A stretch of 64,000 nt of DNA from Alphaproteobacteria bacterium (GCA_009777955.1 WRKW01000002.1:5294-69293); one strand, 5' to 3'. Counted from the stretch's first letter, positions 1,945 to 50,830 are shown. Numbers and translations are program-made. The notes: generated from the sequence alone by a model not told the origin.

Positions 1945-2058
1945 TGTATATAGATTTCACTGTTTTTTCAGTATTTTTCTGTGTTGTTACTGCGGCCTGT
2001 GCCGGATTGCGATTAGAGCTATTTTTTACCCCTAAAACCAGCAATCCGAAACCATAAA

Positions 2059-2718: not shown

Positions 2719-2839
2719 TTATTGCTCCTTTTGATGGTTTATACAACATTATGATTTAAAATTTCAACAGTATTTTTTGACTTGCCAAGCAATGCGCAAT
2801 TGTTCTAATATTCGGTTAAGCAAAAGAGAGGATTCCGTA

Positions 2840-3814: not shown

Positions 3815-3878
3815 AAGCATGAAGCGTGCGGGTGCAAGATAAAGTTATTTGCTTCACGTTTCTTGTTCCTTGTGTCTT

Positions 3879-4508
3879 ATGATTATGAATAAAGCCATTC
3901 TTATTATAGACGATGATGCTGTGCTCCGGGTTTCGCTGGCAAAGGGGCTTCGTCAAAATGGCTTTAATGTTGTAACAGCAGACAGTGCCGAAACGGCCGG
4001 AAAAATCCTTGAAAGGCTTAAATTTGATGCGATTATTCTGGATAGAATGATGACGGGTGTCGATGGACTGACCGCCTTGCGGCAATGGCGTTCCAGTAAT
4101 ATGACTGCTCCGGTTATTATGCTTACCGCGTTGTCGGGGTCGGAAAACGCGATAGCTGGACTGGAAGGCGGCGCGGATGACTATCTTGCAAAACCTTTCA
4201 GTTTAAAGGAATTAATTCTAAGACTTAATAATGCAATGAAAATATCGGTACAGGTACCTGTGCCAGTAATGCCAAAGGGATTAAAGATTGTTGATGGCGA
4301 ATTTTTTGTCGGGCAGAAACTGCTTGCATTATCGACAGTTGAAAAAAAGTTGCTTTCTGCGCTTACTTTACCCACGGGAAGCATTGTTGCCGCCGCACCC
4401 ATGACCGCAAAGCGTTTACGGGAAAAGCTGTCCGCTGCCCTGCCCTGTATTGATATTTTGACAATCAGGGGAAAAGGGTATAAACTAGTTCCAGTCGCTG
4501 GTCGTTAA
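3879..4508 (+). CDS. Two-component response regulator (OmpR family)
   Basis: Receiver-domain motifs: IIDDD, phospho-acceptor D in IILDRMMTGVDG, and LTA...GADDYLAKPF. C-terminal winged-helix ending GYKLVPV. Confidence 0.8.
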   Translation: MIMNKAILIIDDDAVLRVSLAKGLRQNGFNVVTADSAETAGKILERLKFDAIILDRMMTGVDGLTALRQWRSSNMTAPVIMLTALSGSENAIAGLEGGADDYLAKPFSLKELILRLNNAMKISVQVPVPVMPKGLKIVDGEFFVGQKLLALSTVEKKLLSALTLPTGSIVAAAPMTAKRLREKLSAALPCIDILTIRGKGYKLVPVAGR

Positions 4509-4559
4509 TCATTAATCCATTTTTTGAACGGCTATCGGCGGAAACCAAAGGTTTTTGAA

Positions 4560-5837: not shown

Positions 5838-5853
5838 AAAGGGAATTTCAGTA

Positions 5854-6864
5854 ATGAAAATAGATCTTGTTTATTTATGGGTGGATGGATCCGATAAGAA
5901 ATGGCTTGCGAAAAAGAATGTATCATTGGCCGCTGGCGGCCGTCCGCTGGCCAACAATGCGACCCGCGATTCCCGATGGGATGATAATGACGAATTGAAA
6001 TATTCCTTGCGGTCTGCCGAAAAATTCGCGCCATGGATAAACCATATTTACATAATTACCGACGATCAGCGGCCAAGTTGGTTTAAAAGCAGCAACCGCA
6101 TTACAGTTATTGATCATCGTGATATAATTCCAAAAGAATATCTTCCGACATTCAATTCTTCGATGATCGAAATGTTTTTGCATAACATTCCGGGTTTGTC
6201 GGAACATTTTTTGTTTGCAAATGACGATTTCTTTTTCGGCGCGTCTGTCGGATCGGAATTCTTTTTTGATGCCGATGGAAACCCCATTGTGATCGCTGCG
6301 TCGCGCCGTTGGTCTTTGTCGCGTCGCGAAAATGACCAAAGCAGGCACCGTCTGTTTTTCAGAACCATCCGCAACAGCGCACGGCTGGTCTATTCGGTGT
6401 TCGGTCTTGGATACAATCTTACCATGAAGCATGCGATAGAGCCGATGCGAAAATCGTATCTGGCGGATAATATCAACCAATTTCGTGAAAATTTCTTGTC
6501 CACTACCGTGACACCATTCCGCGAAAATATAAACATTCAGCGCATAGTCTTTCCGATGTTGGATAACGCAAAAGGGCGTAATACGATTGTATTTAACTGG
6601 CGCGACGGCCAGAAACGAATCGCCTATGATGTACGCCGCGATTCGTTTTTTTATCGTTTAAGGCTGCGGCTGCGTTGGCTGGCCGCGACAGTATCGGGTC
6701 GGATAAAGTACGATCAGTTTGACAAGAATTTCTGCCTGCTGGGTCATTTGAAGAAATATCGTCCGAAAGAATTTTGTATAAATAACATTCCGGAAAAAAA
6801 GCTGGCTATTGTGACCGGATTTTTAAAAGAAATGTTTCCGGAAAAATCAGAATTTGAAAAGTAA
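5854..6864 (+). CDS. Stealth-family capsule/exopolysaccharide hexose-1-phosphotransferase
   Basis: CR1-like motif DLVYLWVDGSDKKW and CR2-like motif FLFANDDFFFG. Confidence 0.65.
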   Translation: MKIDLVYLWVDGSDKKWLAKKNVSLAAGGRPLANNATRDSRWDDNDELKYSLRSAEKFAPWINHIYIITDDQRPSWFKSSNRITVIDHRDIIPKEYLPTFNSSMIEMFLHNIPGLSEHFLFANDDFFFGASVGSEFFFDADGNPIVIAASRRWSLSRRENDQSRHRLFFRTIRNSARLVYSVFGLGYNLTMKHAIEPMRKSYLADNINQFRENFLSTTVTPFRENINIQRIVFPMLDNAKGRNTIVFNWRDGQKRIAYDVRRDSFFYRLRLRLRWLAATVSGRIKYDQFDKNFCLLGHLKKYRPKEFCINNIPEKKLAIVTGFLKEMFPEKSEFEK

Positions 6865-12302: not shown

Positions 12303-12415
12303 ACGGCTCTCGTCAGAGAGCCGTCATGTTTTCCGTTTTTTGAATGAATAATGAATAGTGAATAATGAATAATTAATGCGTCGCGCAAAGCGCACGATAC
12401 AAATTTATATTGCAT
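12303..12415. repeat. Mosaic palindromic intergenic repeat (hairpin acggctctcgtcagagagccgt, then gaatgaataatgaataat and cgcgcaaagcgcacgataca modules)
   Basis: Related modules recur at 15174, 25047, 42164, 48043, 50694 and 54610. Confidence 0.8.
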
Positions 12416-12550: not shown

Positions 12551-13810
12551 ATGTTTAACAGAAACAAAGGCAGATTTGCCGATATGGGAAAAGTAAAAAG
12601 AACAACCGAAGAAATAATTGACGATGCCAATGCAAAGCATAATCGCATCGCCGCCCTGTGGAGTCGCAACAGACCATCAACCCCGGCGGTACCCGCATCC
12701 GCAAACAATCCCCATGTTGCAAAATCTGCATCGGAAAAAAAGCCGGCTGATAAACAGTCGTCCGAATCAAAAGGGTTCGTGCCATACGCGCTGAACAAAC
12801 AAAGTGTTGGTGGTATATTGTCGGCTTATTGGTTTCCGATTGCGTGTGTTGTTATCGTGCTTTTGCTTGTGGTGTGGGCTATGTGGCCAAGCAGTGATAC
12901 CACTTCGGAAGATGCCCTGCCATTGGCACCCGCTGTTGTAATGGTTGATGGAGAGGTTGTTCATGCCAATCCGGATGAAACAGATGTTAATGTTTCAGAA
13001 CCCACTGTCCATATAATTAACGAAAAGCAGTTGCCAGAATTTGACATAGTTCGAATCGAGAAAAATGGCTCTATAATAATCGCCGGTCGTTATCTGCCCC
13101 AGCAAAGCATATCCGTGATGATTAATAATAAGATTGTCGCCACGGAACGCACCGATGCCAATGGCGAATTTGTGCATGCGCCTACAAAGCCTTTAAATCC
13201 GGGCAACTATACAATAAAGCTGACCGCTGTTGATCATGATGTTGTGTCTGAAAACGATGTATTCCTTTATATAGCACAGGGAAATGATTACAGCAGATCG
13301 CTTTCATTGCTGATGACAAAGGATGGAAGTAAAGTATTACAGGCACCGATGTTGGCTGACGGTGACTTGGCAGTGTCCAAGATAGATTATCTTGAAAATG
13401 GCCGCATAGTCGTCCAGGGTCGGGCTATCCCGCGCCTGCGTGTGACTTTGACATTGGATGGAAATAAAATTGGCACTTCGCGCACAAGCGACCACAAAAA
13501 CTTCATGCTTGGTGCGGATACCGGAAACCTGACAGCGGGTACGGAATATACCCTGGTTGTGAATTTGCATGATGCCAGTGGTAACGCTGTGTCTGCGGTC
13601 ACGCACAAGTTCAAGATGCCGGAAATGACCCCGGGTGATGATACTTGGTACACTGTACGTCGTGGCGATTCGTTATGGATAATTTCACGGAACTTTATTG
13701 GGCGTGGCGTGCGCTATACCGTGATATTCGAAGCAAACAAGGATAAGGTTAAAAAGGCAGATTTGATTTATCCAAATCAGAAACTTCGGATCCCGGTAAC
13801 GGCAAATTAA
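12551..13810 (+). CDS. LysM peptidoglycan-binding domain protein with N-terminal membrane anchor and Ig-like repeats
   Basis: C-terminal LysM (YTVRRGDSLWIISR...LIYPNQKLRIP). One transmembrane segment near aa 95-115. Confidence 0.7.
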   Translation: MFNRNKGRFADMGKVKRTTEEIIDDANAKHNRIAALWSRNRPSTPAVPASANNPHVAKSASEKKPADKQSSESKGFVPYALNKQSVGGILSAYWFPIACVVIVLLLVVWAMWPSSDTTSEDALPLAPAVVMVDGEVVHANPDETDVNVSEPTVHIINEKQLPEFDIVRIEKNGSIIIAGRYLPQQSISVMINNKIVATERTDANGEFVHAPTKPLNPGNYTIKLTAVDHDVVSENDVFLYIAQGNDYSRSLSLLMTKDGSKVLQAPMLADGDLAVSKIDYLENGRIVVQGRAIPRLRVTLTLDGNKIGTSRTSDHKNFMLGADTGNLTAGTEYTLVVNLHDASGNAVSAVTHKFKMPEMTPGDDTWYTVRRGDSLWIISRNFIGRGVRYTVIFEANKDKVKKADLIYPNQKLRIPVTAN

Positions 13811-13887
13811 TCTAAATTGGGGCGCGGAACTACCGCGCCCCACCCTTATAATCCGAATCAATTATTTATAAGTTTGGGGAAAATAAA

Positions 13888-14424
13888 ATGAAAGCCAAAG
13901 ATTTTCGCACCTTTTGCTTGCGTTTGCTGAAATATGAAATGGGTATAACGCTGACAATGCGCCAGCGGGGTCGGAATGTTCCGATAGAAATAAACGGCGA
14001 AAACCAAGATACCCAAAACTGGGATAAGCTTTTGTTAAATGTGGAATGGGGTGAATTCAAAGAAAAAATTTTGCTAAGGCTTATAATGCACGGTGAATAT
14101 CCTATCTGCGGGATCAGTGGCAGACCGATAAAAGAAGAATGCCAGTTATCCAAAGATCATCAAGTTTGCAAAAGCAACGGGGGGTCTTATCGGCTTTCTA
14201 ATCTTCAGCCCGCAATGCATGAAGCAAACGGCAAACGTGGTAATAAAAAATTGGGCAATTCGTCGCCGTATTTAAATTGTAATACCAACGGAAAGATTAT
14301 AACAAATATCCGGCAGATTGAAGAGCGTAAGGATCACAAGCCAAAGTACAGAAATAAAAAGAAAATCCGTGTTTTTAATCTGGCAGATGAGATGATAAAT
14401 AGGGCAAGCAGAAAACAAAGATAA
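13888..14424 (+). CDS. HNH endonuclease family protein
   Basis: CGISGRPI...LSKDHQVCKSNGGSYRLSNLQ...HEANGKRGNK matches the HNH beta-beta-alpha metal finger (DH...N...N/H). Confidence 0.55.
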   Translation: MKAKDFRTFCLRLLKYEMGITLTMRQRGRNVPIEINGENQDTQNWDKLLLNVEWGEFKEKILLRLIMHGEYPICGISGRPIKEECQLSKDHQVCKSNGGSYRLSNLQPAMHEANGKRGNKKLGNSSPYLNCNTNGKIITNIRQIEERKDHKPKYRNKKKIRVFNLADEMINRASRKQR

Positions 14425-14548
14425 AAAAATAGGCTTTGTGGTAGAGAGTATTTTTTTGCATTTTGGCAAAAATATTTATTAAAAATAAACTTGACAAATC
14501 CATATACAGGTCTATCATGTTTGTATAATCTAACCAAAAGGCAAAAAA

Positions 14549-15100
14549 ATGTTTAACATATTTAATAGAAAACCTAAAAAAACACAATCGCATGATGAAA
14601 CGCAACAGGCGCATAACAAAACGTATTTTATTAAAAACTATCTTATAGTTACCCACAATATCCCGACCAAGGGCGAAGTTCCGGTGTTCGTTCATGTCTT
14701 TTCCGAAAGTATGCAGATGCTGGGCGTGCCAGAAATGTACGCGTTAAGCGATAATTGCAAGGCCAATCAGAAAGAAAATTGCAGTGGACTTAGCGTTATG
14801 AAAAAAATGATAAATAAAGAAAATGGGGATGGCTATTTCGAAGGAACTATGAGTGAAATGAAAAAAAAGTTTCCAAAGATAGGTTTTGACTGTCTGGTAA
14901 GAACCGATATCGGTGAATATTATTTGCGTATAGTAAAGCTTAGCACTACGACCATGACCGAAGGTGGAACTGCGCCATGCAAAAATATCTGCGGAAAGTG
15001 CGATAAGTGTAGGGAATCCCAGCCAACGGTTATTGGTAACGTAAATAGCCTGGTCGAACGTTTTCTGGACAATTGCAATTCGTGCAGAAACGGCAGATAA
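14549..15100 (+). CDS. Hypothetical protein with C-terminal CxxC...CxxC cluster (183 aa)
   Basis: Upstream is very AT-rich. C-terminus has a zinc-ribbon-like CKNICGKCDKC...CNSCRNG. Confidence 0.4.
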   Translation: MFNIFNRKPKKTQSHDETQQAHNKTYFIKNYLIVTHNIPTKGEVPVFVHVFSESMQMLGVPEMYALSDNCKANQKENCSGLSVMKKMINKENGDGYFEGTMSEMKKKFPKIGFDCLVRTDIGEYYLRIVKLSTTTMTEGGTAPCKNICGKCDKCRESQPTVIGNVNSLVERFLDNCNSCRNGR

Positions 15101-15173
15101 AATCGCATTAAAAAATTACCATCATACCTGCGACGGCAAATGATTCCGTTGATATGATTATCCCTTAAACGGC

Positions 15174-15195
15174 TCTCGTAAGAGAGCCGTTAATA
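15174..15195. repeat. Hairpin repeat acggctctcgtaagagagccgt (probable terminator of the upstream gene)
   Basis: Perfect 8-bp stem. Same family as the 12303 repeat. Confidence 0.7.
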
Positions 15196-15225
15196 ATGCG
15201 TTCACTTTACATGACTAAATACAAA

Positions 15226-15254
15226 TTGACCTTTGTCATGGCATATGGTATAAT
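15226..15254 (+). promoter_or_regulatory. Near-consensus sigma70 promoter (TTGACC, 17 nt spacer, TGgTATAAT)
   Basis: -35 at 15226-15231. Extended -10 at 15246-15254. AAAGGAG RBS follows, then the ATG at 15276. Confidence 0.6.
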
Positions 15255-15275
15255 ATACCCAAAGGAGAGAGTATC

Positions 15276-15785
15276 ATGAATACATTTAACAAAACTATAA
15301 AGATAACAAGTATCCTTGCTGTATTAACGATAATCCCATTGCATGGGTCTATTGCCGCTGTTGCGTGTATGGCAAGACCCATAAGTCCGACGAGTTGTCC
15401 AGAAAGTGGCGTAACCCAGTGTCCTGCTAGCGGTACCAGTGGTAATGCCACAAATCAAGATTGTACCAACCTATCCCTTGGCGATTGGAAATTAACGGGT
15501 TGTACCGGAAGTAATGTATCAGAGTTCAGTGGCACAAGCCTGTGTTCAAGCACAAGCGGAACATATCCTAATTTTGGCAACCCTGTTACAGATGGTGGCA
15601 GTAATTGTTGGTGTAAGATAACCAGTATTCCCGGGTTTAGTGTCGCTTCGTCAGCTTGGGTTTGCCGGGGCACCGTCGGCGGGGGTTTGTCCGGTTGTGC
15701 GGATTACTGCGCGTACCATTGCGCGGACTTCGTCCGGAACGTTTCCGTATTCCGGTCGGCGCTGTTTGCGGCTCTCGGCCTTTAA
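15276..15785 (+). CDS. Cys-rich secreted protein, paralog A (169 aa)
   Basis: Signal peptide. About 90% identical over the first 60 aa to the product of 24443..24994. Shared CWCKITSIPGFSV block. Confidence 0.6.
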   Translation: MNTFNKTIKITSILAVLTIIPLHGSIAAVACMARPISPTSCPESGVTQCPASGTSGNATNQDCTNLSLGDWKLTGCTGSNVSEFSGTSLCSSTSGTYPNFGNPVTDGGSNCWCKITSIPGFSVASSAWVCRGTVGGGLSGCADYCAYHCADFVRNVSVFRSALFAALGL

Positions 15786-16085
15786 TGTTATGGCGGTCTG
15801 ATGTCATTGTGGTCTGGTGTCATTGCGAGTCACAAAGTGGCGAAGCAATCTTTTCAGGTATTCCGTGTCATTGCGAGTCGCGCCGTCAGGCGGACGAAGC
15901 AATCTGTTCCAACGATGGAAGTATAAAAATTCCATTGTCTGGAAGGATTGCTTCGCGGTCTTCGACCACTCGCAATGACACGGAATGCTGGAAAAGATTG
16001 CTTCGCGGTCTTCGACCACTCGCAATGACACAAAATATCTGGAAAGATTGCTTCGTGGTCTTCGACCACTCGCAATGACACGAAA
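15786..16085. repeat. Cluster of five ~50-bp units (GTGTCATTGCGAGT, variable hairpin core, CGAAGCAATC), two forward and three inverted
   Basis: Direct reading of 15817-16080. The six-frame ORFs here (15804..16130 etc.) are repeat artefacts. Confidence 0.8.
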
Positions 16086-16187
16086 TGTTATATTGGAATA
16101 CAATATAAATCTTAAACATTGAAAATTCATACTAATATTGATATACTAAGCCTGTGAAACTTAACCATTAATCATGGAGCCTATGAT

Positions 16188-16526
16188 ATGATAACAGAAT
16201 CGAATAATATAAAAATATTTGTAAAAAACGGTAACAAGGTACAGGTCAGCGAAGGTGTGTTTTTGGAACTGATTAATATGGAATATGTTGTTGATTTCTT
16301 AAAAGATATATCCAAACAGGTTCCATCACCAGGATTCAAGGTAACTTTATCATATAAGCTTACCGTAGATAATAACGAATATCTTGGCGAATTTACGCAT
16401 AACCATTATTCTGGGAATGAAAGTAAAATGGACGAAAAAAGTCCTTATGATGTTAAATTTATAACCTGGAAATTTGGGGACGATAATCCGGATAAATATT
16501 TTGAATTTGATGTTATAAAAAAATAG
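16188..16526 (+). CDS. Hypothetical protein (112 aa)
   Basis: ORF only. AT-rich island context. Confidence 0.3.
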   Translation: MITESNNIKIFVKNGNKVQVSEGVFLELINMEYVVDFLKDISKQVPSPGFKVTLSYKLTVDNNEYLGEFTHNHYSGNESKMDEKSPYDVKFITWKFGDDNPDKYFEFDVIKK

Positions 16527-16688
16527 AGAATCAAAACAGACGGCGTTCTGTTTTTATCCCCCGCCCCGCCCGGTAAAAATTGGTGGTGCGGGGAGAGAAT
16601 AAAAATAGTTTTCAATTTCAACCTTTACCAAAAGGCTACGGTGGTAACAAAAAACTGCGCCTTTTGGGTAAAGTTTAGAAAATATAAA

Positions 16689-17126
16689 CTAGTGCTGTTT
16701 TTCCTTTTCCGCTTTAATTGAAAGATGCCGTGCTGCCATATTCACGGCTTTGTAAAGCTCTTCCGTGCAATCGACACATTTTTTCTGGCAACTTTCGCAT
16801 TCTGGAAATTCGACTTTGAATACCATAACCCCTTTTATGAGATTATTTCTGGGTTCGATACCATTTGGGCGTTTATCCATATAGCCAAATTCGGCATCAT
16901 GTCCCCTGTAATCTGTTATTATTTTTGCTTCTTGGGTAAAAGTAATCGTTCCATTTACTCTGGTTTTGGCATCCATTTCTTTATCCGCCTTTTCATAGTC
17001 TTTTTTGATGCATTCGCAGATAAGATCCGTTATTTTCTCGTGCGGATTCGCAAAGCCAAAATATGGAAGCGAGATTTTAATTTCCTGGTTTTTAAAGAGA
17101 AATTTTGCTGTGTCATAATCATTCAT
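16689..17126 (-). CDS. Hypothetical protein with CxxC-x5-CxxC cluster (145 aa)
   Basis: CESCQKKCVDC near the C-terminus. Confidence 0.35.
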   Translation of the reverse strand: MNDYDTAKFLFKNQEIKISLPYFGFANPHEKITDLICECIKKDYEKADKEMDAKTRVNGTITFTQEAKIITDYRGHDAEFGYMDKRPNGIEPRNNLIKGVMVFKVEFPECESCQKKCVDCTEELYKAVNMAARHLSIKAEKEKQH

Positions 17127-17305
17127 TTATCATCCTTTAATGTTACTTCTCTCTCATAAAACAAAATATAGGGTATATCTATATTTAAAATGCAATCGAA
17201 AATTGGATAAATATGGTGCTGTGGGCAGCTGTGGGAGTATCGAACTAATTTTGGTTATGATATTGAGAGGTTAAGAAAGAAAATCGATACATTCAAACAG
17301 GAAAT

Positions 17306-17866
17306 CTATTTCAATACTTTCCACAAATCTTCAAATGTTGCACCTGTGTCAGAAAAGCAAAAATGTCCTTTGTCCGTATAGTCGTGTCGTGTGATGTTTG
17401 GATATATCTGCATAATATGGTTAACGCTTTTTGTAATCATATCCATATCATCTTGCGAATGAAACAAATGGACGTGTTTGATTTTATTTAACGCTTCTTT
17501 ATTAAAATCGAATTGTAAGAAATCACCCTCTCGTCTATCTGGGTCGATCCATGGCGCAACCAGTACAAGCTTATCCAAAGATATCCCTGGATTCCCATGC
17601 AACCATTTCAAAAAAAATCCACAGCCTGCACTATGTCCAACAACAACCGACAGATTAGAATGGTCTAATTGTTCAAAAGTCTTTTTCCATTCTTCATAAA
17701 CGGGTTTGTAAGGCGCTGGCATTTCCAGACACTGACACAACAGGCCAGAACGCAAAAATTTTTGCTGCAACCACGGCAACCAATGCGCATTTGACGGAGA
17801 TGGGAAGTCCATCTCGAAATACTCCTCTCTATCACAAACACCGTGCAATATAACTGCTGTTTTCAT
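17306..17866 (-). CDS. Serine hydrolase, YdeN/RBBP9 alpha/beta-hydrolase family
   Basis: About 186 aa. GHSAGC nucleophile elbow. Late Asp/His (HSQDD...H). Confidence 0.6.
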   Translation of the reverse strand: MKTAVILHGVCDREEYFEMDFPSPSNAHWLPWLQQKFLRSGLLCQCLEMPAPYKPVYEEWKKTFEQLDHSNLSVVVGHSAGCGFFLKWLHGNPGISLDKLVLVAPWIDPDRREGDFLQFDFNKEALNKIKHVHLFHSQDDMDMITKSVNHIMQIYPNITRHDYTDKGHFCFSDTGATFEDLWKVLK

Positions 17867-17946
17867 TTAATTTCCTTTGCTTTTTGAAATTATAAACAAC
17901 ATTTCATAAAATTAAAGTTAAAACTTAAACAATTTAAGAGAAAATT

Positions 17947-18741
17947 TTAGTCGCTGATTATATCTTCAACCCAGTCTAAAATCTCTTTACTCGGATTGCT
18001 TATCACAAGTTCTTGCCATTGGCCTGTCTTTTGAAAATAATCGTCTTTCCAACCTGGCGAACACACACTTGAAAACTCTGCATTTTTGAAAGAAGTAGGC
18101 AAATCCCATTTAGACCTGCTCATTCCATTTTTAGTTAGAACGCGTTTGTCTGCGTATTTTAATGTTCCGTATTGTCTATCTTTCGGGATAAAAAGCCAGT
18201 TATTATCATCCTGGTCAAAAAGACTTCGTGCAATCTCTTTTTTTGAGTGCGGATGCCATGGACAAATTCGTGCAATATCAGCCGTTCCTTTTATTATTCC
18301 ACCAACTTCCATAAAGCCATAAATTATGTGCTTATCCGGACCAACGAATGCAAGCTTACCATTGTCTTGTAATTCCGTTTGTCTGAACCAACCAAAAAAC
18401 ACAAACAAGTCGCCAATACCAACATTGGATTTTTTAAGGTGTGACAAGGCAGCCCCTTGTTGTCCGAATGCAGGAATCCAATTCTCAGGACAACTATTTA
18501 TGCAATCATTTCTTATGTCCGGGTCAAGATGACAGAATCTAATATCAAAAGCAGGGTTCAGTTCTTTTATTATCTGTTCATAAGTTTTTCCATTATAGGA
18601 AATGTCCGAGAATCTTCGTTCGCTATTTTTATCAGGAATTGGCAATGATAAAAGCGTACCGTCCGACAATATAGGATTTGGCATACCGCCTGCACTTGAA
18701 TCAAAGCCCTTACGGCTTAGAATAATTTTCTGTTTTTTCAT
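17947..18741 (-). CDS. Hypothetical protein (264 aa)
   Basis: Long clean ORF. No recognised motif. Confidence 0.45.
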   Translation of the reverse strand: MKKQKIILSRKGFDSSAGGMPNPILSDGTLLSLPIPDKNSERRFSDISYNGKTYEQIIKELNPAFDIRFCHLDPDIRNDCINSCPENWIPAFGQQGAALSHLKKSNVGIGDLFVFFGWFRQTELQDNGKLAFVGPDKHIIYGFMEVGGIIKGTADIARICPWHPHSKKEIARSLFDQDDNNWLFIPKDRQYGTLKYADKRVLTKNGMSRSKWDLPTSFKNAEFSSVCSPGWKDDYFQKTGQWQELVISNPSKEILDWVEDIISD

Positions 18742-18917
18742 ATATGAATTATAAAGTACGCAGATGCAAAAATAAAGCCCAAACAGGCGGTGAGAATCGA
18801 ACTCCGTGCCATTTCTCCGAAAGGTTGGATTTCCAAGCTTTTTCAGTAGATAGTTCGATAGCTCCGTAAAAACTGCTGATTTAAAATATCATATTAACGG
18901 GCAGTGCAAAAGACAAA

Positions 18918-19163
18918 TTATTTCCAAAGCCTTTTATTCGCGAACGCCTGGCCAGAATGTGTTTTAAGATAATATTCAAATTCTTTCGCCTGACGTTCAT
19001 CAGAAAATGATAAATATGTTATCAATTCCCACGGCTTAAATTTGCTTGTATGTATGGACTTTCCATTATTGTGATCTTTTATACGTTGTTTCAAATCAGA
19101 TGAAAATCCAATATATTTTTGATTTGGGGAGTTGATACTTTTTATAAGATATACATAAAACAT
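18918..19163 (-). CDS. GIY-YIG nuclease family protein (small, YhbQ/UPF0213-like)
   Basis: YVYLIKSINSPNQKYIGFSSDLKQRIKDHNNG matches the GIY...YIG...R..H.N core. 81 aa. Confidence 0.7.
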   Translation of the reverse strand: MFYVYLIKSINSPNQKYIGFSSDLKQRIKDHNNGKSIHTSKFKPWELITYLSFSDERQAKEFEYYLKTHSGQAFANKRLWK

Positions 19164-19185
19164 TGGTGCTTTTTTTGATTTGTGT

Positions 19186-19289
19186 CCAGGCTTCGCTTTT
19201 CAAGCTACGCCGGACTAGTCTTCGCTAACTTCTCTCTACGGCCTGCCTTACTGGCGTAAGCCAGGCGTAGCTCGAAGAGCGAAGCCTGG
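19186..19289. repeat. Long inverted repeat (26-bp arms, 2 mismatches, ~52-bp loop) abutting the tRNA-Gly 3' end
   Basis: ccaggcttcgcttttcaagctacgcc pairs with ggcgtagctcgaagagcgaagcctgg. A single-arm copy occurs at 61896-61920 after tRNA-Ser. Confidence 0.7.
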
Positions 19290-19360
19290 TGCGGGCGAAG
19301 GGAATCGAACCCTCGTCTCAAGCTTGGGAAGCTCGCATTCTGCCATTGAACCACGCCCGC
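19287..19360 (-). tRNA. tRNA-Gly (anticodon CCC)
   Basis: Reverse complement GCGGGCGTGGTTCAATGGCAGAATGCGAGCTTCCCAAGCTTGAGACGAGGGTTCGATTCCCTTCGCCCGCACCA. Near-identical architecture to E. coli tRNA-Gly(CCC). Confidence 0.85.
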
Positions 19361-19522
19361 GAAGTTTACGAATTATAACCAGATTTCATTTGACTTTCAA
19401 TAGATTTGTTATATACTTACCGTAAGTAAAAACGAATCCTTGGCCTGTGGGTCTGGGACACCGAACGGCAAGTGTTTGCTCTCGGTGGCTTTTTATTGGA
19501 AAAACAAAAAAGGATACAAAAC

Positions 19523-20029
19523 ATGGCAGTTGCAATAAGACTTTCAAGACATGGCGCGAAGAAACGGCCCTATTATCACATAGTTGTAACAGATTCCCGT
19601 CTTGCACGCGATTCTGGCAGTATTTTGGCCACCATAGGAAAATATGACCCGATGCAGCCAAAGGATAGTGACAGACGGATGAAAATTGATGCAGACAAGG
19701 TAAAATCTTGGATGGGAAAAGGGGCACGTCCATCGGACAGAGTTTACAAATTGTTGGCAAACGCAGGATTGTTGGAAAAAAGACCATTCCCGGTTCAGAC
19801 AAAGAAAAATCAGCCGTCTGAAAAAACCCTGATGAAACTGAAAGATCGCGAGGCAAAGCTTGCCAAAGTTGCCGAAGATAAAGCGGCGGTCGATGCGGCC
19901 GCGAAAACAGAGATGGAAAAACCGAACGATAATCCGGTGGAAACTTCGGCCGAAGCTGTTGTCGCAACAGAACCAGTGGCAGAATCAGTTCCAGTCGAAG
20001 CCCCGACAGAAGAAGCAAAAGCAGAATAA
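19523..20029 (+). CDS. rpsP: 30S ribosomal protein S16 with Ala/Glu-rich C-terminal extension
   Basis: MAVAIRLSRHGAKKRPYYHIVVTDSR. RBS AAGGA. Confidence 0.9.
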   Translation: MAVAIRLSRHGAKKRPYYHIVVTDSRLARDSGSILATIGKYDPMQPKDSDRRMKIDADKVKSWMGKGARPSDRVYKLLANAGLLEKRPFPVQTKKNQPSEKTLMKLKDREAKLAKVAEDKAAVDAAAKTEMEKPNDNPVETSAEAVVATEPVAESVPVEAPTEEAKAE

Positions 20030-20265
20030 ATTTATCTATTGTACAAACAAAGGATTCTGGATGGGCTTTTTTTACAAAACCGAAAACGGATACTGTTGCA
20101 AAATTACATGTAAATATTGCCCAGAAGTAAACGAACATTTCAAGAATTGGGGAAACGGCATCCGATATTTTGCAAAAAATAAAGTTCCAGATTTGTTTCT
20201 TGAACCATCGGATGAGGCATTATGTGGCATTGTTTTGAAATGTCATCTTGCAAATCAGGGGAAAA

Positions 20266-20724
20266 ATGTCGAAACAAAACAAGATCCTTGTCGGGAAGAT
20301 AGTCGGGGTACAGGGGCTGCGCGGCGAAATCCGTGTGCAATCCTATACCGAAAATTCCGGGGATTTTGCGTGGCTGGACGCAAGTATATGGGCAAATAAC
20401 ATTCGCCCAAAGCAATTTAGATTTGTCCGCGCATTGCCCAACTCCACCGTCGTCATAGCCAGAATCGACGGCATAGATAACCGTACCGCGGCGGAATCAT
20501 TGCGCGGGACAGAATTATTTATTGATCGCGACACCCTGCCCCTGCCCGACGAAAACGAGTATTACATAGCCGATTTAATTGGAATGAATGTTGGTGGTCG
20601 CAAAGTTGCCGCCGTACACAACTTTGGTGCCGGTGACATATTGGAATTGGATGATGGCGAAATGCTATCCTTTACGGGTGCAAAGGTTGATGTAGAAAAA
20701 AGAGAAATAATACTGCACGATTAA
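20266..20724 (+). CDS. rimM: Ribosome maturation factor RimM
   Basis: KILVGKIVGVQGLRGEIRV, the PRC-barrel RimM pattern. Operon position after rpsP. Confidence 0.85.
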   Translation: MSKQNKILVGKIVGVQGLRGEIRVQSYTENSGDFAWLDASIWANNIRPKQFRFVRALPNSTVVIARIDGIDNRTAAESLRGTELFIDRDTLPLPDENEYYIADLIGMNVGGRKVAAVHNFGAGDILELDDGEMLSFTGAKVDVEKREIILHD

Positions 20725-20753
20725 TTCAAATTATAAAGTAAAAGGGGGTTGCA

Positions 20754-21077
20754 ATGAAACTTAACTGCCCACGGAAAGTATTATCGTACATAGATTGTGG
20801 CGATGCTTACGAGATAACGTACATTGATGGTACGTCGACAGGTACCATAAGGTTTAATAAAACCGAATTCTTGAAACAAAATCCGGCGGTTCGCAAAAAT
20901 ATGTATATCGCGCCATGCGGATGGGGGTGGAGTTGCGCCACAACTGGTCGCTGGTGCAAAAAAGTCGAAAACCTTGCAGAACGGGATGTTCCTGATAAGC
21001 TTCAAAGCAGATATGTGCCCTTTCCTTGGCTTGTCAAATGTAACAGGCAATTCTATAAAATGATCAAAAACAGATAA
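20754..21077 (+). CDS. Hypothetical Cys/Trp-containing protein (107 aa) inserted between rimM and trmD
   Basis: Strong RBS AAAGGGGG. No homolog recognised. Confidence 0.35.
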   Translation: MKLNCPRKVLSYIDCGDAYEITYIDGTSTGTIRFNKTEFLKQNPAVRKNMYIAPCGWGWSCATTGRWCKKVENLAERDVPDKLQSRYVPFPWLVKCNRQFYKMIKNR

Positions 21078-21370
21078 TCCCGGAAAAAATGAAAAGGATG
21101 AAAAGTGCAGGAATTTCCAAGAATGTTTTCACAAAAAATAAAAGCCGCAAAGGTCGTTTCTAAACATCCTTTTATGACATGGCGTGTTTATTTACCTGGT
21201 GCCGTTGTACGTGATATAAAAAGCAGTGACCTGTTGGGCGAAAGCGAACCGGAATCCGGTGCCACCATTTATCCGTGCAATCTGGTCTGCGACAGCCGTG
21301 AAGAGTATTGCGTCAAATACGGACGGGAAAATCACAAATGCTGGGGACAGTTTTCTTATATCAGAAAGGG

Positions 21371-22066
21371 ATGCCGTTGATGCATTTCAACATACTGACT
21401 ATTTTTCCAGAAATGTTTCCTGGTACTTTGGGCGGTGGGGTTGTTGGGCGCGCGCTTGAAAAAAAAATCTGGTCATATAGTGCCATGGATCTGCGTGGAT
21501 TCGCGACAGATAATTATGGCAGTGTGGATGATGCCCAATTTGGTGGCGGTGCGGGGCAAGTAATGTTGCCGGAAGTTATTGGCAGTGCGATTGATTCGAT
21601 CCCATCGAATCATCGTGGGGATATTATATGTTTTTCACCGCGTGGCAGGTTATTGGATCAAAAAACAGTCAGAAAATTCGCAGATTCGGGCATGTCACAC
21701 TTCACGCTGATTTGTGGCCGGTACGAAGGAATTGACCAACGTGTCATTGAAGAGTATAATATGACAGAGCTTTCTGTCGGCGATTATATATTGTCTGGTG
21801 GTGAAATTGCGGCCCAGGTTTTTATTGACAGTTTGGTTCGTCTGTTGGATAATGTGGTTAATGGTGGCGCGGATGCGACCGCCAATGAAAGCTTTGAAAT
21901 CGGGGGGTTGGAATGGCCGTTATACACCCGCCCGTCAGCATGGCGTGGACGCAAAGTCCCAGAAGTCCTGTTGTCCGGTCATCACGGCAACATAGAAAGG
22001 TGGCGGAAAGAACAATCGGACGAAATAACAAAAAAGCGTCGTCCGGATTTAGTAAAGGAAAGTTAA
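21371..22066 (+). CDS. trmD: tRNA (guanine37-N1)-methyltransferase TrmD
   Basis: [12 protein letters not shown]...GGGAGQVM...[12 protein letters not shown]. The start could alternatively be the ATG at 21380. Confidence 0.9.
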
Positions 22067-22068
22067 AT

Positions 22069-22470
22069 ATGAATATTATTAGCAAAATTGAAAAAAATCA
22101 GATTGAAAAACTTGCCGCTGGCAAGAAAATTCCTGTATTCAAGGCGGGCGACACTGTGCGTGTCGGCGTTAAAATCAAAGATGGCGACAAATTCCGTACC
22201 CAGGTTTTCGAAGGTGTGGTAATTGAAAGGTCAGGCAGCGGGTCGAATGCCGCCTTTACAGTCCGCAAAGATTCTTATGGTGTTGGCGTAGAACGCAAAT
22301 TCCCGCTGTATTCACCATCCATAGAATATATTGAAAAAGTCCGCAATGGAAAAGTCCGCCGTGCGAAATTATTCTTCCTGCGCGCTCTTTCCGGTAAAAA
22401 GGCCAGAATTGTGGAAGATCTTGGCGCGACAGCGGCAGAAAAAAATGCAAGGCAGGGACAGGCGGCATGA
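22069..22470 (+). CDS. rplS: 50S ribosomal protein L19
   Basis: [35 protein letters not shown]...[15 protein letters not shown]. Confidence 0.92.
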
Positions 22471-22619
22471 ATCTCTTTCCGAATTTAAGTTTAGAGAAAT
22501 TATCAAAAGTATGCCTTGTCGGTGCGCTTGTGTCGATTGCTTCGCCCGTGCTTGCAAAATATTTTCTTGCGGGTGCGTTATTTGTTGCCGCATCGGATAT
22601 GGTTTCCAGACAGAAATAA

Positions 22620-23017
22620 TGAAGAATATAAAAAAATATCTTTCAGTTCTTTGTGTCTTGTGCTTTGCACCCTGCGCCTTGTCTGCGAATGAATTTATCG
22701 ACAAGAACACCGCCGTTATTCGTATAATGAACAAGGCTGCGGGTCGGGCAAGAAGCATAACCATTCCTGTCGGCAGAAAAACCGAATTTGAAAAGCTGGA
22801 AATACTGATTCGTTCCTGCAAGTCGACGGCTCCGTTTGCGGCACAGGATAACTTTATGTTCATAGAGATAGCGAAAAAGTCCGTGGCCGGACGGGATTCG
22901 GGCAACAATGCCGCCAATGCTACCCAAATATTCAGCGGCTGGATGATTGCAAGCGCGCCGGGTGATAACCCGCTTCAAGATGCTGAATATGACCTTTGGC
23001 TGGTTGAATGCGAATAG
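22620..23017 (+). CDS. Secreted hypothetical protein (132 aa)
   Basis: Signal peptide MKNIKKYLSVLCVLCFAPCALSA. Operon position immediately after rplS. Confidence 0.45.
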
Positions 23018-23033
23018 AATAGAGAGAGAACAA

Positions 23034-23357
23034 ATGAACTTTATAAAAATACATTTGAAACTTATTATTGGGATATTGGCATTGGGCATGGTTGCCGCGA
23101 TGTTTTTTATGTCCATGAAGCCCAGCGATTTGGAAGAAGGTGACTTGCGTGCCTGGCTATCTGCGACATCTGCCCGCCGCCAGGCGGCGATAGAAATTCT
23201 TACCGGTGGGTCTGAAAATATTGGAATTATGGTTGCTTGCATTGATCGTATGGCCGGTTTGCCCGAATCGGGCAAAGTAAAGGTTCGCGATGCCGCGTCC
23301 CTTTGCGCCGTTGGTATTGCGTTGCGGGAAAACAACAGGGATCCTGACACGCAATGA
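23034..23357 (+). CDS. Small membrane protein (107 aa)
   Basis: One N-terminal transmembrane helix. Confidence 0.35.
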   Translation: MNFIKIHLKLIIGILALGMVAAMFFMSMKPSDLEEGDLRAWLSATSARRQAAIEILTGGSENIGIMVACIDRMAGLPESGKVKVRDAASLCAVGIALRENNRDPDTQ

Positions 23358-24424
23358 AAACTTTTGTCGGATCGGTTCAAAAAAAAATCCTTTGCCTTGG
23401 CATTGAATCTTCGTGCGACGAAACCGGTGTCGCCATTGTCGATTCGGAAAGAAATATTTTATCAAATATAATTTATTCCCAAATTCCAGAACATCAAAAA
23501 TACGGCGGGGTTGTTCCTGAACTGGCCGCGCGCGCGCATATTCTGGCGATAGAAGATGTTGTGCGCCGCGCGCTTTCTGTTGCGGGCAGGACAATTGATG
23601 ATATTGATGTTATTGCGGCGACGGCTGGCCCCGGGCTTATCGGGGGGGTGCTGGTCGGATGGCTGGGCGCGGTCGGGATAGCCCAGGCCACTGGAAAGCC
23701 GCTGGTGGCGGTAAATCATCTAGAGGGGCATGCACTGGTGCCACGGCTGACAAATGACACGAAGTTTCCATTTTTGTTGCTATTGGCATCCGGGGGGCAC
23801 AGCCAGATACTTTTGGTAAACGGTGTGGGTAATTATGAATTAATCGGCCAGACGCTTGATGACAGTGCCGGCGAGGCATATGATAAAGTCGCAAAAATGC
23901 TTGGGCTGGGCTATCCCGGCGGGCCGATTGTCGATTCGCGTGCCGGACTTGGCGATTCAGTTGCGTTTAAGTTTCCACGGCCATTATGTGATAAGCCGGG
24001 ATGTGATTTTTCATTCAGTGGATTGAAAACCGCCGCACGCACTTTTGTAGAAAAGCAAAAAGCGATTGACGATACACAAATAAAAAACGATGAATTTATC
24101 AATAATATTTGCGCGTCGTTCCAATCCGCAGTGGTCGATTGTATGGAAAACAGGATGCGCAATGCGATGAAAGACGGGCGTGTTTTGGCTGCATCGCCCA
24201 ATGCCCTGGTTGTGGCGGGTGGTGTTGCGAAAAATTCTGCCATACGCGCGATGCTTTCGGTATTGGCATCGGAATCTGGTATGCAGTATGCCGCCCCGCC
24301 TTTGAACCTTTGTACTGATAACGGGGCTATGATTGCATGGGCCGGAATTGAAAACTATCTTGTTGGAAAGATTGTAAAAGAACCTGTCGCCCCCCGTCCC
24401 CGCTGGCCCTTGACGGAGTTATAA
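23354..24424 (+). CDS. tsaD: tRNA N6-adenosine threonylcarbamoyltransferase TsaD
   Basis: LGIESSCDETGVAIV...VNHLEGHAL...ASGGHS. Kae1/TsaD family. Confidence 0.9.
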   Translation: MKTFVGSVQKKILCLGIESSCDETGVAIVDSERNILSNIIYSQIPEHQKYGGVVPELAARAHILAIEDVVRRALSVAGRTIDDIDVIAATAGPGLIGGVLVGWLGAVGIAQATGKPLVAVNHLEGHALVPRLTNDTKFPFLLLLASGGHSQILLVNGVGNYELIGQTLDDSAGEAYDKVAKMLGLGYPGGPIVDSRAGLGDSVAFKFPRPLCDKPGCDFSFSGLKTAARTFVEKQKAIDDTQIKNDEFINNICASFQSAVVDCMENRMRNAMKDGRVLAASPNALVVAGGVAKNSAIRAMLSVLASESGMQYAAPPLNLCTDNGAMIAWAGIENYLVGKIVKEPVAPRPRWPLTEL

Positions 24425-24442
24425 GCACTTCCCGCAATGACA

Positions 24443-24994
24443 TCAAAGGCCAAGACCCGCAAACAGCGCCGACCGGACAGCGGAAGAGTTCTGGGCGAAG
24501 AATGCGCAATTGAACGCGCAGTTATCCGCGCAAATGGACGGAGTGCTGTAGTCGTTCGCGAAAACCCAAGCCGACAAAGCGACACTAAACCCAGGAATGC
24601 TGGTTATCTTACACCAACAGTATTGTCCGTTATCTGCAACAGGGTTGCCAATGTTAAGGTAGCTTCCGCTTGTATTTGAACAAAGGCTTGTGCCACTGAA
24701 TTCCGATACATTACTCCCGGTACAATTTGTTGCTTTCCAATCGCCAAGGGATAGGTTGGTGCAATCACGATTTTGCGTGGCATTACCACCAGTGCCACCA
24801 CTAGCAGGACACTGGGACCAATCACCACTTGGACAACTCGTCGGACTTATAGGTCTTGCCATACACGCCACAGCGGCAATAGACTGATGCAATGGGATTA
24901 TCGTTAATACAGCAAGGATACTTGTTATCTTTATAGTTTTGTTAAATGTATTCATGATACTCTCTCCTTTGGGTATATTTATATTATACCACAT
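24443..24994 (-). CDS. Cys-rich secreted protein, paralog B (183 aa)
   Basis: Paralog of the 15276..15785 product (MNTFNKTIKITSILAVLTIIPLH...). Confidence 0.6.
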   Translation of the reverse strand: MWYNINIPKGESIMNTFNKTIKITSILAVLTIIPLHQSIAAVACMARPISPTSCPSGDWSQCPASGGTGGNATQNRDCTNLSLGDWKATNCTGSNVSEFSGTSLCSNTSGSYLNIGNPVADNGQYCWCKITSIPGFSVALSAWVFANDYSTPSICADNCAFNCAFFAQNSSAVRSALFAGLGL

Positions 24995-25011
24995 ACCATG
25001 ACAAAGGTCAA
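24983..25011 (-). promoter_or_regulatory. Near-consensus sigma70 promoter for paralog B (TTGACC, 17 nt spacer, TATAAT)
   Basis: Mirror copy of the promoter at 15226..15254. Confidence 0.55.
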
Positions 25012-25023
25012 TTTTTATTTAGT

Positions 25024-25200
25024 CATGTAAAGTAAACGCATTCTTAACGGCTCTTTTAAAAGAGCCGTCATGCCTTCCGCCTTCGCTATCGCTACGGTGC
25101 GACAAGGCGCAGACACCCATTGTTCAATAAGGCATCGTGCGCACAGCGCACGATACATACATTATTCATTATTCATTCAGCTGAAATCCACAACCCATAC
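25024..25200. repeat. Mosaic palindromic repeat, inverted copy (hairpin acggctcttttaaaagagccgt plus cgcacagcgcacgataca...attattcattattcattc)
   Basis: Same modules as the 12303 and 50694 repeats in reverse orientation. Confidence 0.75.
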
Positions 25201-26544: not shown

Positions 26545-27600
26545 TTAATTCCACGGTATAGTGGATTTTCCGCATGAAGAATGACCAATAGGCAATGTGC
26601 CCAGATTCGCACAGATTTGATCTGTGGTGCCAATACCAATTTTATGACATGATAAAGCCCCGTCAGTATCATTTATCATAAAGCATCCATCCCAATCGCA
26701 CGAACATCCGCCCCATAACAATCCGCCCATAGATGTGCAAGCCGTCTGTGTTATTGTTTCGGGACACGAGAATATGTTTCCGGTTGTGTTACATGCGGTA
26801 TGTGTAGCGTTTACAACGCCGTCGCAATGTGCACAAGCCGTGCCGTTCCAATATTGGTTTGCGCCGGGACAGCGCAGTTCGCACTTGTTTTGGAAATAGT
26901 TGGGCACGGCGTAATCCACACAGTTGAAACCGATGTATACTTGCCGAATTTCGGTGCGATTCGCATCGGTGCATATTGCGCCCATTGCGTCCGCGCATAG
27001 ATTGCATGTATTGGTAACTGGATTCCAATATCTTCCAGACCATCTGCTGCATTCAATACAAGCACCTATTCCAGAGCTATAATATTGATAGGCGCAAAAT
27101 TCACAATTTCCATTGGAATATACACTGCCGGCCGGACATCCCGTGGATTGCAACGTACACGAACCCGGTGTTCCATAGTATTTGTTTGCTGCGTCGCATA
27201 TACATCCTGAATGCGATGGATCCGGGATTTCGCCCGTGTTGTCACATGTTTTACAGGCATTGCCATTCCAGTATTGGTTAGAACCATCGCAATTGTCGGG
27301 TCTGGGTAACGGTTCTCCGTAGCCAAGTTCTTCCGAATCGAAATAAAAGGTTTGTCCAGCATAGTTTTTCATGCGCAACGAATTCATTGGCATGCTTGAT
27401 GCGCCGTCGTTTGCGGGCGAATAATATAAATGTCCGCTGTCTGTAAGTATTCTTAACGAATTTGACGGTATGTCTGAAAGTTGTGCGGCCGGGGTCAATG
27501 GTATGGAATATTGTCCTATGCGCAGGGTTTGCTGTGCCAATGCTGTACATGTAATGATTTGTATGACGACAAATAGAAAAAATAATTTTAAATCGCGCAT
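26545..27600 (-). CDS. Cys-rich secreted repeat protein (351 aa)
   Basis: Signal peptide. Recurring NQYWNG.AC..CD motifs and about 40 Cys. Confidence 0.6.
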   Translation of the reverse strand: MRDLKLFFLFVVIQIITCTALAQQTLRIGQYSIPLTPAAQLSDIPSNSLRILTDSGHLYYSPANDGASSMPMNSLRMKNYAGQTFYFDSEELGYGEPLPRPDNCDGSNQYWNGNACKTCDNTGEIPDPSHSGCICDAANKYYGTPGSCTLQSTGCPAGSVYSNGNCEFCAYQYYSSGIGACIECSRWSGRYWNPVTNTCNLCADAMGAICTDANRTEIRQVYIGFNCVDYAVPNYFQNKCELRCPGANQYWNGTACAHCDGVVNATHTACNTTGNIFSCPETITQTACTSMGGLLWGGCSCDWDGCFMINDTDGALSCHKIGIGTTDQICANLGTLPIGHSSCGKSTIPWN

Positions 27601-50693: not shown

Positions 50694-50830
50694 GGCTCTT
50701 TTAAAAGAGCCGTCATGCTTTCCGTTTTTTGAATGAATAATGAATAATTAATGCGTCGCGCAAAGCGCGACACCGCCCCCAACATTGTCACTCCGGCGCA
50801 TGTGGATTAAAGTTTGAAGCGAGTCATTTG
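50694..50830. repeat. Mosaic palindromic repeat (hairpin plus gaatgaataatgaataat, cgcgcaaagcgcgac, and caacattgtcactccggcgca modules)
   Basis: Shares modules with the 12303 and 54610 repeats. Confidence 0.8.

Follow-up and report, generated by a model that had tools for sequence, protein, structure and literature searches.

Two inverted Cys-rich protein genes beside a ribosomal-protein operon belong to a dispersed, candidate exported protein family in an alphaproteobacterial genome

In a 64,000-nucleotide (nt) stretch of Alphaproteobacteria bacterium DNA (GCA_009777955.1, WRKW01000002.1:5294-69293; the window, with positions counted from its first letter), two similar genes for Cys-rich proteins, here copy A and copy B, face each other in opposite orientations about 9 kb apart. 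The initial annotation took them, together with an upstream hairpin, as a pair of inverted duplicates able to mediate inversion of the ribosomal-protein operon between them. The locus therefore raises the question of whether the pair itself, or something that the pair belongs to, is the object of interest. We find that A and B are ordinary members of a genome-specific multigene family of at least 25 copies. The initial annotation was partly right about the kind of gene and wrong about what makes these genes notable, which is the family.

Copies A and B among their paralogues

With copy A as query, a search across 5.8 billion proteins yielded 25 matches of 163-170 amino acids (aa) at 65-81% identity. 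Of these, 23 carry FWG80_ locus tags and thus come from one metagenome-assembled genome (MAG; 'Alphaproteobacteria bacterium'), where they occupy at least 11 contigs with a summed length of at least 0.96 Mb. Tags assigned by the Prokaryotic Genome Annotation Pipeline step by 5; if that step holds here, tags reaching 05050 would imply about 1,000 genes, with the family making up roughly 2% of the gene set. The neighbours of other copies are unrelated housekeeping genes (such as dnaN, efp, pyrG, purL, gyrA, murG/ftsW, gatB), and the copies lie in direct as well as inverted orientation; one locus (L005) holds a divergent inverted pair 3.3 kb apart. No third copy was found in the window by tblastn of A and B. 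A metagenome scan gave two further copies, both on the same contig, and a scan of genome contigs, a collection apparently without this MAG, gave a single distant relative (L001, 33% over the C-terminal half). Copy A is 81% identical to the paralogue P0002 and 77% identical to P0003, compared with 75% to B. Because A is closer to both of these than to B, the pair is not a local inverted duplication. At one further locus, L007, two other genes lie near a family copy: positions 1794-5558 encode a 1254-aa ART-PolyVal/MuF_C polyvalent protein, of a kind typical of phages and conjugative elements, and positions 12804-15068 encode a VirD4/TraG-type coupling protein.

The mirror-image modules do exist. 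Pairwise alignment of 15100-15900 (+) with the reverse complement of 24350-25150 gave a mean column identity of 84%, and the hairpin, the TTGACC-17-TATAAT promoter and the AAAGGAG ribosome-binding site (RBS) were found in both modules where the initial annotation had placed them. As inverted duplicates, A (15169-15796, +) and B (24432-25068, -) share 97% identity across promoter, RBS and signal peptide and 81-84% over the remainder. A repeat finder resolved this similarity into four collinear inverted arms (Table 1), within which the longest exact match is 93 nt (15252-15344 = 24979-24887). The edges are sharp, with onset at the hairpin (15169 and 25068) and an end approximately 12 nt past both stop codons. 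A downstream segment had also been described as shared; it is present, but consists mostly of the final codons (RSALFA.LGL) and the start (~12 nt) of a palindromic repeat. The two proteins are about 75-76% identical, and residues 1-42 and the CWCKITSIPGFSVA core are fully identical. A 183-aa open reading frame (ORF) for B (24443-24994) was rejected, as its upstream ATG falls inside the promoter and the true start is at 24955.

The hairpin, of the form ACGGCTCT-N6-AGAGCCGT, did not hold up as a part of the module. It occurs six times in the window, where none is expected, and the four occurrences besides those at A and B are at unrelated intergenic sites. Among nine family copies with upstream sequence it precedes three only (A, B and that at L002). 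On these grounds it is a separate dispersed palindrome that merely abuts some copies, and we rejected it as a component of the duplicated unit. A role as a Rho-independent terminator was likewise rejected, as the T-run is absent and the copy at 25047 stands between divergent genes; a terminator scan lists neither the 15169 nor the 25047 hairpin, only the copy at 12303, with a weak tail. Other dispersed repeats, of the TGAATGAATAATGAATAAT type and units containing GCGCAAAGCGCG, lie at 12329-12405, 50718-50800, 54614-54705 and ~25160-25185 and often adjoin the ACGGCTCT hairpin, such that the intergenic DNA is a mosaic of short repeats.

An invariant cassette and a variable domain

A module of about 88 nt (TTGACC-17-TGnTATAAT, AAAGGAG) is near-invariant in an alignment of all nine copies for which upstream sequence is available. 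The conserved stretch opens ~88 nt 5' of the ATG at GTTCACTTTACATGACTAAATACAAA and continues through TTGACC, a 17-nt spacer, TGGTATAAT and AAAGGAG, which in A and in B lies 8 nt ahead of the ATG. The sole variation among the nine copies is a 6-nt AATATA indel between the -10 element and the RBS (24974-24979; 15254-15255; L004, L005, L007, L009), which separates long and short forms of the 5' untranslated region (5'UTR). The NCBI and ENA assemblies disagree on AATATA at locus B, which could reflect a real polymorphism or a chimeric contig end. The promoters of A and B both match 11 of 12 consensus positions and carry a TG extended -10, a pairing unique to them among 55 promoter-like sites between 12 and 28 kb. 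A full-length RpoD with regions 1.2-4 is encoded at 39125-41203, so the sigma-70 consensus is relevant here. In line with the initial annotation, the sequence supports near-consensus sigma-70 promoters ahead of paralogous Cys-rich proteins with a putative N-terminal export signal. An inverted repeat, CATGAC-N19-GTCATG, flanks the -35 element; its two occurrences in the window are both at family promoters, and it may act as an operator.

The N-terminus, MNTFNKTIK(I/L)TSILAVLTIIPLH.SIAAVAC, is invariant in all paralogues. With two Lys in the n-region, a 13-residue hydrophobic core and A-V-A (A-x-A) ahead of Cys31, it reads as a Sec-type signal peptide, by which the proteins would be exported. 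Eleven Cys are conserved, with invariant cores CTGSNVSEFSGTSLCS and CWCK(I/L)TSIPGFSVASSAW. Variable loops lie at residues ~42-48, 54-61, 72-75, 94-100 and 107-110, and variability is greatest at 130-160. The pattern CxC...CxxxCxxxC is present in 24 of the 25 family members.

An AlphaFold2 model based on a 96-sequence alignment (predicted local distance difference test score 87.2, predicted template modelling score 0.77, signal peptide disordered) predicts a sheet of five strands (46-48, 70-73, 84-91, 110-118 and 128-133) followed by C-terminal helices at 137-155 and 157-165. In the model, CWC falls within the strand 110-118 and CxxxCxxxC within the helix 137-155. Sequence entropy along this first helix has a period of four (C-A-v-v three times over, v marking a hypervariable position), giving the helix a conserved Cys/Ala face and an opposite hypervariable face. 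Disulfide bonds would be expected to link C141, C145 and C149 on the Cys face with C90, C111 and C113 in the sheet, an arrangement resembling the cysteine-stabilised alpha/beta motif. When A, B and distant relatives were scanned against Pfam and NCBIfam, no family matched save Flg_new in large relatives, and neither Foldseek against PDB and BFVD nor a PDB sequence profile search returned a match for the domain. Another secreted-looking, Cys-rich protein is encoded 1.5 kb from B (26545-27600, -; 351 aa, ~40 Cys); it is unrelated to the family by tblastn, and its only Pfam match is a sub-threshold TNFR/ELAPOR1-like one.

Divergence among the copies was quantified by pairwise Nei-Gojobori counts over 12 distinct paralogue coding sequences, with nucleotide identity taken over nt 1-93, 94-400 and 400-end, segments not exactly coincident with the ranges used for the proportions of synonymous (pS) and nonsynonymous (pN) differences. 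In the signal peptide, identity is 94%, with a pS of 0.12 and a pN of 0.03 over codons 1-25. The mature N-terminal part (the mid segment) is 78% identical, with pS 0.41 and pN 0.17, and the C-terminal helices (alignment columns 135-165; the 3' segment) are 72% identical, with pS 0.25 and pN 0.38. The margin by which pS in codons 1-25 falls below that of all codons from 32 onwards has a bootstrap confidence interval of 0.12-0.33. Given this low pS in the signal peptide, the 5' end is near-identical even at silent sites, a homogeneity that could stem from gene conversion, from constraint at the nucleotide level, or from both. In the C-terminal helices pN exceeds pS (one-sided bootstrap p ~0.04), with windowed ratios of nonsynonymous to synonymous substitution rates (dN/dS) of 1.5-2.7, as compared with 0.03-0.09 in the invariant cores. 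These values are suggestive, at a borderline level, of diversifying selection on the exposed helix face. Dimorphic blocks (MARPIS/VPKPNS, CPASG/CSALG and KI/KL) occur in every combination.

The 3' side of the genes is also distinctive. Units of the form GTCATTGCGAG...GAAGCAATC begin right at the stop codon in most copies, first in forward and then in inverted orientation. Within the window the GTCATTGCGAG 11-mer occurs only at 15819-16079 (five copies) and as a one-mismatch remnant after the B stop; over all fetched loci, 53 of its 64 occurrences lie no more than 450 nt downstream of a family-gene stop. Copy B has no full array because the end of tsaD is only 18 nt from the B stop. When folded as RNA, the array after A forms one long nested hairpin (-167.7 kcal/mol, against -89 +/- 5 for shuffles; z = -16), and by analogy with the REP/BIME elements considered below it may terminate or stabilise the mRNA. 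At the Rfam gathering score, only four tRNAs were found in the window, and 15100-16200 gave chance-level miRNA matches only. Mechanically called ORFs of 108-140 aa in this region (15656-16078, +; 15804-16130, -) were set aside as artefacts of the array, their translations repeating 'CHCES...EAI' or 'VIASGRRPRSNL'.

Relatives of the domain extend well beyond this genome. A family profile run against 1.84 billion cluster representatives found 661 with E <= 1e-3, 83 of which reach E <= 1e-10; CxC...CxxxCxxxC is kept in 225 of the 237 relatives whose sequences were retrieved. One group comprises small stand-alone secreted proteins, some in paralogous sets with a common signal peptide (P0039, P0040, P0042, P0083). 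The other comprises large proteins of up to 6,218 aa with one to seven copies of the domain, many with Listeria-Bacteroides/InlB B-repeats (PF09479). InlB B-repeats mark surface proteins. Outside the family, 134 of 165 proteins of at least 200 aa, and 69 of 71 smaller ones, have the domain ending no more than 8 residues from the C-terminus; in some relatives it is internal or present in two to seven tandem copies. Named relatives are all from gut alphaproteobacterial MAGs (Rickettsiales bacterium LBD50_, Alphaproteobacteria bacterium ACLRF*_ and Candidatus Enterousia merdequi). Enterousia belongs to the order Rs-D84, with genomes below 1 Mb that have lost most biosynthesis and a proposed dependence on partner cells; these bacteria are thought to live off other cells (PMC12306168).

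Table 1 Features of the two gene modules and of the DNA between them (window coordinates)
Feature	Position	Strand	Description
Palindromic hairpin ACGGCTCTCGTAAGAGAGCCGT	15169..15190		dispersed repeat, not integral to the gene module
Copy A promoter/5'UTR	15200..15275	+	A/T-rich upstream stretch; -35 TTGACC 15226-15231; 17-nt spacer; TG and -10 TATAAT 15249-15254; RBS AAAGGAG 15261-15267
Copy A (P0001, FWG80_01225)	15276..15785	+	169 aa; putative signal peptide to ~28-30, predicted Cys-rich beta-sheet and two C-terminal helices
3' repeat array of A	15786..16090		two forward and three inverted GTCATTGCGAG...GAAGCAATC units; 3 x 50-nt tandem 15938-16087
Intervening block	16188..24424		not family; gene calls and Pfam
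Block genes, minus strand		-	ORFan, Ser_hydrolase, Nmad3, GIY-YIG (the other, first ORFan is on the plus strand)
tRNA-Gly(ccc)	19287-19360	-
Block genes, plus strand, in order		+	rpsP, rimM, two small ORFs, trmD, rplS, DUF2155, small ORF, tsaD
3' repeat remnant of B (GTCATTGCGGG)	24431..24442	-	directly after the B stop
Copy B (P0004, FWG80_01310)	24443..24955	-	170 aa
Copy B promoter/5'UTR	24956..25037	-	-35 25011-25006; -10 24988-24983; long form, extra AATATA between -10 and RBS
Dispersed hairpin, second copy (ACGGCTCTTTTAAAAGAGCCGT)	25047..25068		between divergent B and xseA
Inverted arm 1	15169-15257 / 24980-25068		89 nt, 91%
Inverted arm 2	15252-15401 / 24830-24979		150 nt, 97%
Inverted arm 3	15452-15663 / 24562-24773		212 nt, 84%
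Inverted arm 4	15689-15796 / 24432-24539		108 nt, 81%

What the family may do, and whether the pair inverts

Taken together, these data lead us to favour, with some confidence, a family of exported binding proteins that is diversifying and strongly expressed. Each member has the form of a self-contained expression cassette, with a strong sigma-70 promoter, an extended -10, a short 5'UTR and a strong RBS driving a product made up of a putative Sec-type signal peptide and a ~140-aa domain predicted to be disulfide-rich, usually followed by a 3' palindromic-repeat hairpin. After export, the conserved Cys scaffold would hold the domain together, the CxC strand probably being bonded to one face of the CxxxCxxxC helix, while the scaffold displays the hypervariable loops and the hypervariable helix face. 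The family would then supply a set of differing binding modules, exported or at the surface, for contact with host or partner cells, kept under diversifying selection, with promoter, UTR and signal peptide held near-identical among copies by gene conversion and/or nucleotide-level constraint. This gut bacterium, with its small genome, probably uses the copies to vary what host or partner cells meet. Copy number, cassette structure, the pattern of variability and the lack of a curated family are established here, whereas export, the disulfide pattern, binding and the part played by the 3' hairpin are inferred. A more far-reaching version, which we put forward only tentatively, is that a new disulfide-stabilised alpha/beta domain is the main cell-contact determinant of reduced, Rs-D84/Enterousia-like gut Alphaproteobacteria; here, about 25 autonomous cassettes sharing one promoter, with converted 5' ends, a dedicated 3' palindrome and a positively selected helix face, would make up a new kind of bacterial surface repertoire, shown in parallel and unswitched.

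Several points weigh against an exported, diversifying repertoire. Export is read from the sequence of the N-terminus, in which the junction between AVA and C could be a signal peptidase I site or a lipobox. Set against the lipobox pattern [LVI][ASTVI][GAS]C, the family's A-V-A-C has an atypical Ala at -3, and distant homologues violate the pattern with V, M or L at -1 (IVC, AVC, NMC, FVC), which makes cleavage by signal peptidase I more likely. The disulfide pattern is a prediction from model and sequence. Low 5' pS fits gene conversion as well as it fits selection on mRNA or DNA, and the pairwise homoplasy index (PHI) test for recombination was non-significant (p = 0.078), so gene conversion is offered here as a candidate process only. 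The excess of pN over pS is borderline, at p ~0.04 from pairwise counts on 12 sequences. Finally, the strong C-terminal placement of the domain in relatives could instead denote an anchoring or sorting role.

The low synonymous divergence at the 5' end would also be predicted by conversion tracts under programmed antigenic or phase variation, in which paralogues swap variable segments by gene conversion and copies are switched, for example via the AATATA repeat. The dimorphic blocks found in all combinations are in keeping with this, as is a 6-nt indel that varies both among copies and between two assemblies at B. We nonetheless consider such a system unlikely. A complete promoter and RBS precede nine of nine copies, leaving neither silent cassettes nor a single expression site, and AATATA sits downstream of the -10 element, where the -35/-10 spacing is unaffected by it. 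The assembly difference at B falls at a contig end in a multi-copy repeat and may be a chimera, the PHI test gave p = 0.078, and no homopolymeric tracts, invertase sites or nearby recombinase were found.

Placement of the domain within 8 aa of the C-terminus in most relatives, large and small, together with a conserved terminal motif (FRSALF..LG), would also suit a C-terminal sorting or anchoring module that fixes proteins to the cell wall or outer membrane; on that view the small copies would be structural proteins of the envelope made in abundance, for which very strong promoters are fitting. Domains of that kind are normally conserved, however, whereas in this family variability peaks in the C-terminal helices, where pN exceeds pS. 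The internal and tandem placements in relatives also argue against anchoring, and no known sorting-signal model matched in the Pfam and NCBIfam scans. We regard this explanation as quite doubtful.

We are equally sceptical that the inverted copies serve as recombination substrates flipping the 9-kb ribosomal-protein block, whether as a device for regulation or strand switching or as a common structural polymorphism. The modules do bracket rpsP-rimM-trmD-rplS-tsaD, as initially described, but four minus-strand genes and tRNA-Gly also lie between them. Homology permits inversion in principle: 93 nt of exact match and 150 nt at 97%, in inverted orientation, would allow RecA-type exchange, and recombination genes in the window comprise ruvB, a RecN-like SMC protein and a UvrD-type helicase. 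In the ENA assembly of source metagenome ERZ27257348, moreover, the segment stands as a contig of its own, of 9,824 nt, both ends of which lie 72 nt upstream of an ATG. Many other family loci also show contig breaks within the 5' module, however, so these ends are attributable to repeat-induced graph branching in short-read assembly, and the repeat alone accounts for the breaks. Two JGI (Joint Genome Institute) contigs from source metagenome 3300002469, L013 (left flank, all of copy A and a further 160 nt) and L012 (A body to B body), tile the orientation of the window. L013 is 100% identical to the window and from the same population, the assemblies deriving from the same or a very similar one; it is therefore not independent evidence, and we rejected it as independent confirmation.

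No sign that inversion occurs was found. Among the assembly contigs searched there was none joining the left flank to the B body, and the GC skew of rpsP-tsaD (+0.14 to +0.15) has the same sign as that of the flanks, although over 9 kb the noise in skew leaves room for an inversion long ago. No site-specific recombinase lies in or beside the block, the genes being Nmad3, Ser_hydrolase, GIY-YIG, ribosomal-protein and tRNA-modification genes and xseA. A crossover in the 5' module would swap gene bodies only; both promoters would still drive a family gene, and thus no regulatory effect is expected. We treat inversion as a theoretical possibility and the mirror-image placement of the two genes about the rpsP block as incidental.

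Secreted defensin-like toxins or antimicrobials against competitors or host cells are highly improbable. In their favour are a conserved signal sequence ahead of a mature region that is hypervariable around a fixed set of Cys, and a CxC/CxxxC pattern recalling cysteine-stabilised alpha/beta peptides. Against them stand housekeeping neighbours with no immunity or export genes beside the copies examined, the same domain terminating giant repeat-rich surface proteins, a ~140-aa mature protein far larger than defensin-type peptides and the absence of a toxin-like fold in Foldseek searches.

Other features of the window were recorded in passing. GC content falls to 0.38-0.39 over 15000-19500, beside tRNA-Gly(ccc), against a window mean of 0.44. 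Besides two ORFans, this stretch carries Nmad3, Ser_hydrolase and a GIY-YIG protein of 81 aa, and it could represent a small islet acquired within the so-called ribosomal block. An 89-nt direct repeat (62956-63044 and 63596-63684) has copies 640 nt apart that are 96% identical. Three long ORFs have no Pfam match at E <= 1e-5: 50882-54496 (-, 1204 aa), 56678-59158 (+, 826 aa) and 35759-37696 (+, 645 aa). A Stealth CR1/CR2 protein of the capsule-type hexose-1-phosphoryltransferase family (5758-6864, +) adjoins a glycosyltransferase family 2 (GT2) gene, a pair that hints at modification of surface polysaccharide.

An exported binding repertoire would bear on a widespread group, as Rs-D84/Enterousia relatives with genomes of ~1 Mb are found in animal and termite guts (PMC12306168). 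With an estimated ~2% of genes in this genome, and with its domain capping giant surface proteins in relatives, the family is a concrete candidate for a contact or recognition factor. It would be a natural case of a conserved cassette for expression and secretion fused to a diversifying scaffold. The domain has neither a curated family nor a solved relative and is thus a good target for structure determination. The family is also the chief source of contig breaks in the assembly of this organism.

Comparison with known systems

The inverted pair recalls the substrates of rrn, insertion sequence (IS) and tuf inversions and of shufflons, being homologous copies 9 kb apart with a 93-nt exact match. 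Unlike in those systems, no alternative isomer was observed among the contigs searched, there is no dedicated recombinase in or beside the block, and no change in expression is expected.

The 3' arrays are comparable to the short intergenic palindromes known as repetitive extragenic palindromic sequences and bacterial interspersed mosaic elements (REP/BIME), enterobacterial repetitive intergenic consensus (ERIC) sequences, Rickettsia palindromic elements and Neisseria Correia elements, which can stabilise or terminate transcripts. As with those elements, stable hairpins are predicted for the arrays at gene 3' ends; unlike them, GTCATTGCGAG is nearly confined to the 3' side of one gene family (53/64), and it has no Rfam match.

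In intimin and invasin, a C-terminal lectin-like domain forms the adhesive tip of a fibrillar adhesin. The parallel lies in a terminal domain, here predicted to be disulfide-stabilised, that caps long repeat-rich surface proteins, with InlB B-repeats in the relatives described above. No similarity of sequence or fold was detected, however, and the copies in this genome consist of the domain alone after a putative signal peptide.

Conotoxins and defensins are eukaryotic peptides of 10-50 aa, and in the cysteine-stabilised alpha/beta fold the helix comes ahead of the CxC strand. The family shares with them a signal sequence conserved even at synonymous sites, a fixed Cys framework with hypervariable residues between the Cys, and the predicted combination of a CxC strand with a CxxxC helix. 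It differs in that the domain is ~130-140 aa, the order of strand and helix is reversed and the helix carries a third Cys (CxxxCxxxC), the pairing being predicted.

The Erp/OspE-F and Mlp proteins of Borrelia cp32 are plasmid- or prophage-borne lipoproteins, co-regulated and host-binding. There, as here, every copy has its own promoter, and a near-identical promoter region and leader precede divergent mature proteins, whereas the present copies are chromosomal, lie between housekeeping operons and are unrelated in sequence and fold.

The vsp genes of Mycoplasma bovis, vlp of M. hyorhinis and vsa of M. pulmonis encode repeat-rich, Cys-poor, surface-exposed lipoproteins from one locus and are switched by promoter poly-A tracts or site-specific inversion. 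The likeness is extensive: many paralogues in a reduced genome, with a near-identical 5' non-coding region and signal peptide ahead of a divergent mature part. In contrast to the mycoplasma genes, the copies described here are dispersed, each with a full promoter; the fold that they encode is predicted to be compact and disulfide-rich, and neither a switch nor an invertase was found. While it has the defining features of neither, the family most resembles the surface-protein families of mycoplasmas and Borrelia, combined with the leader logic of conotoxins and defensins.

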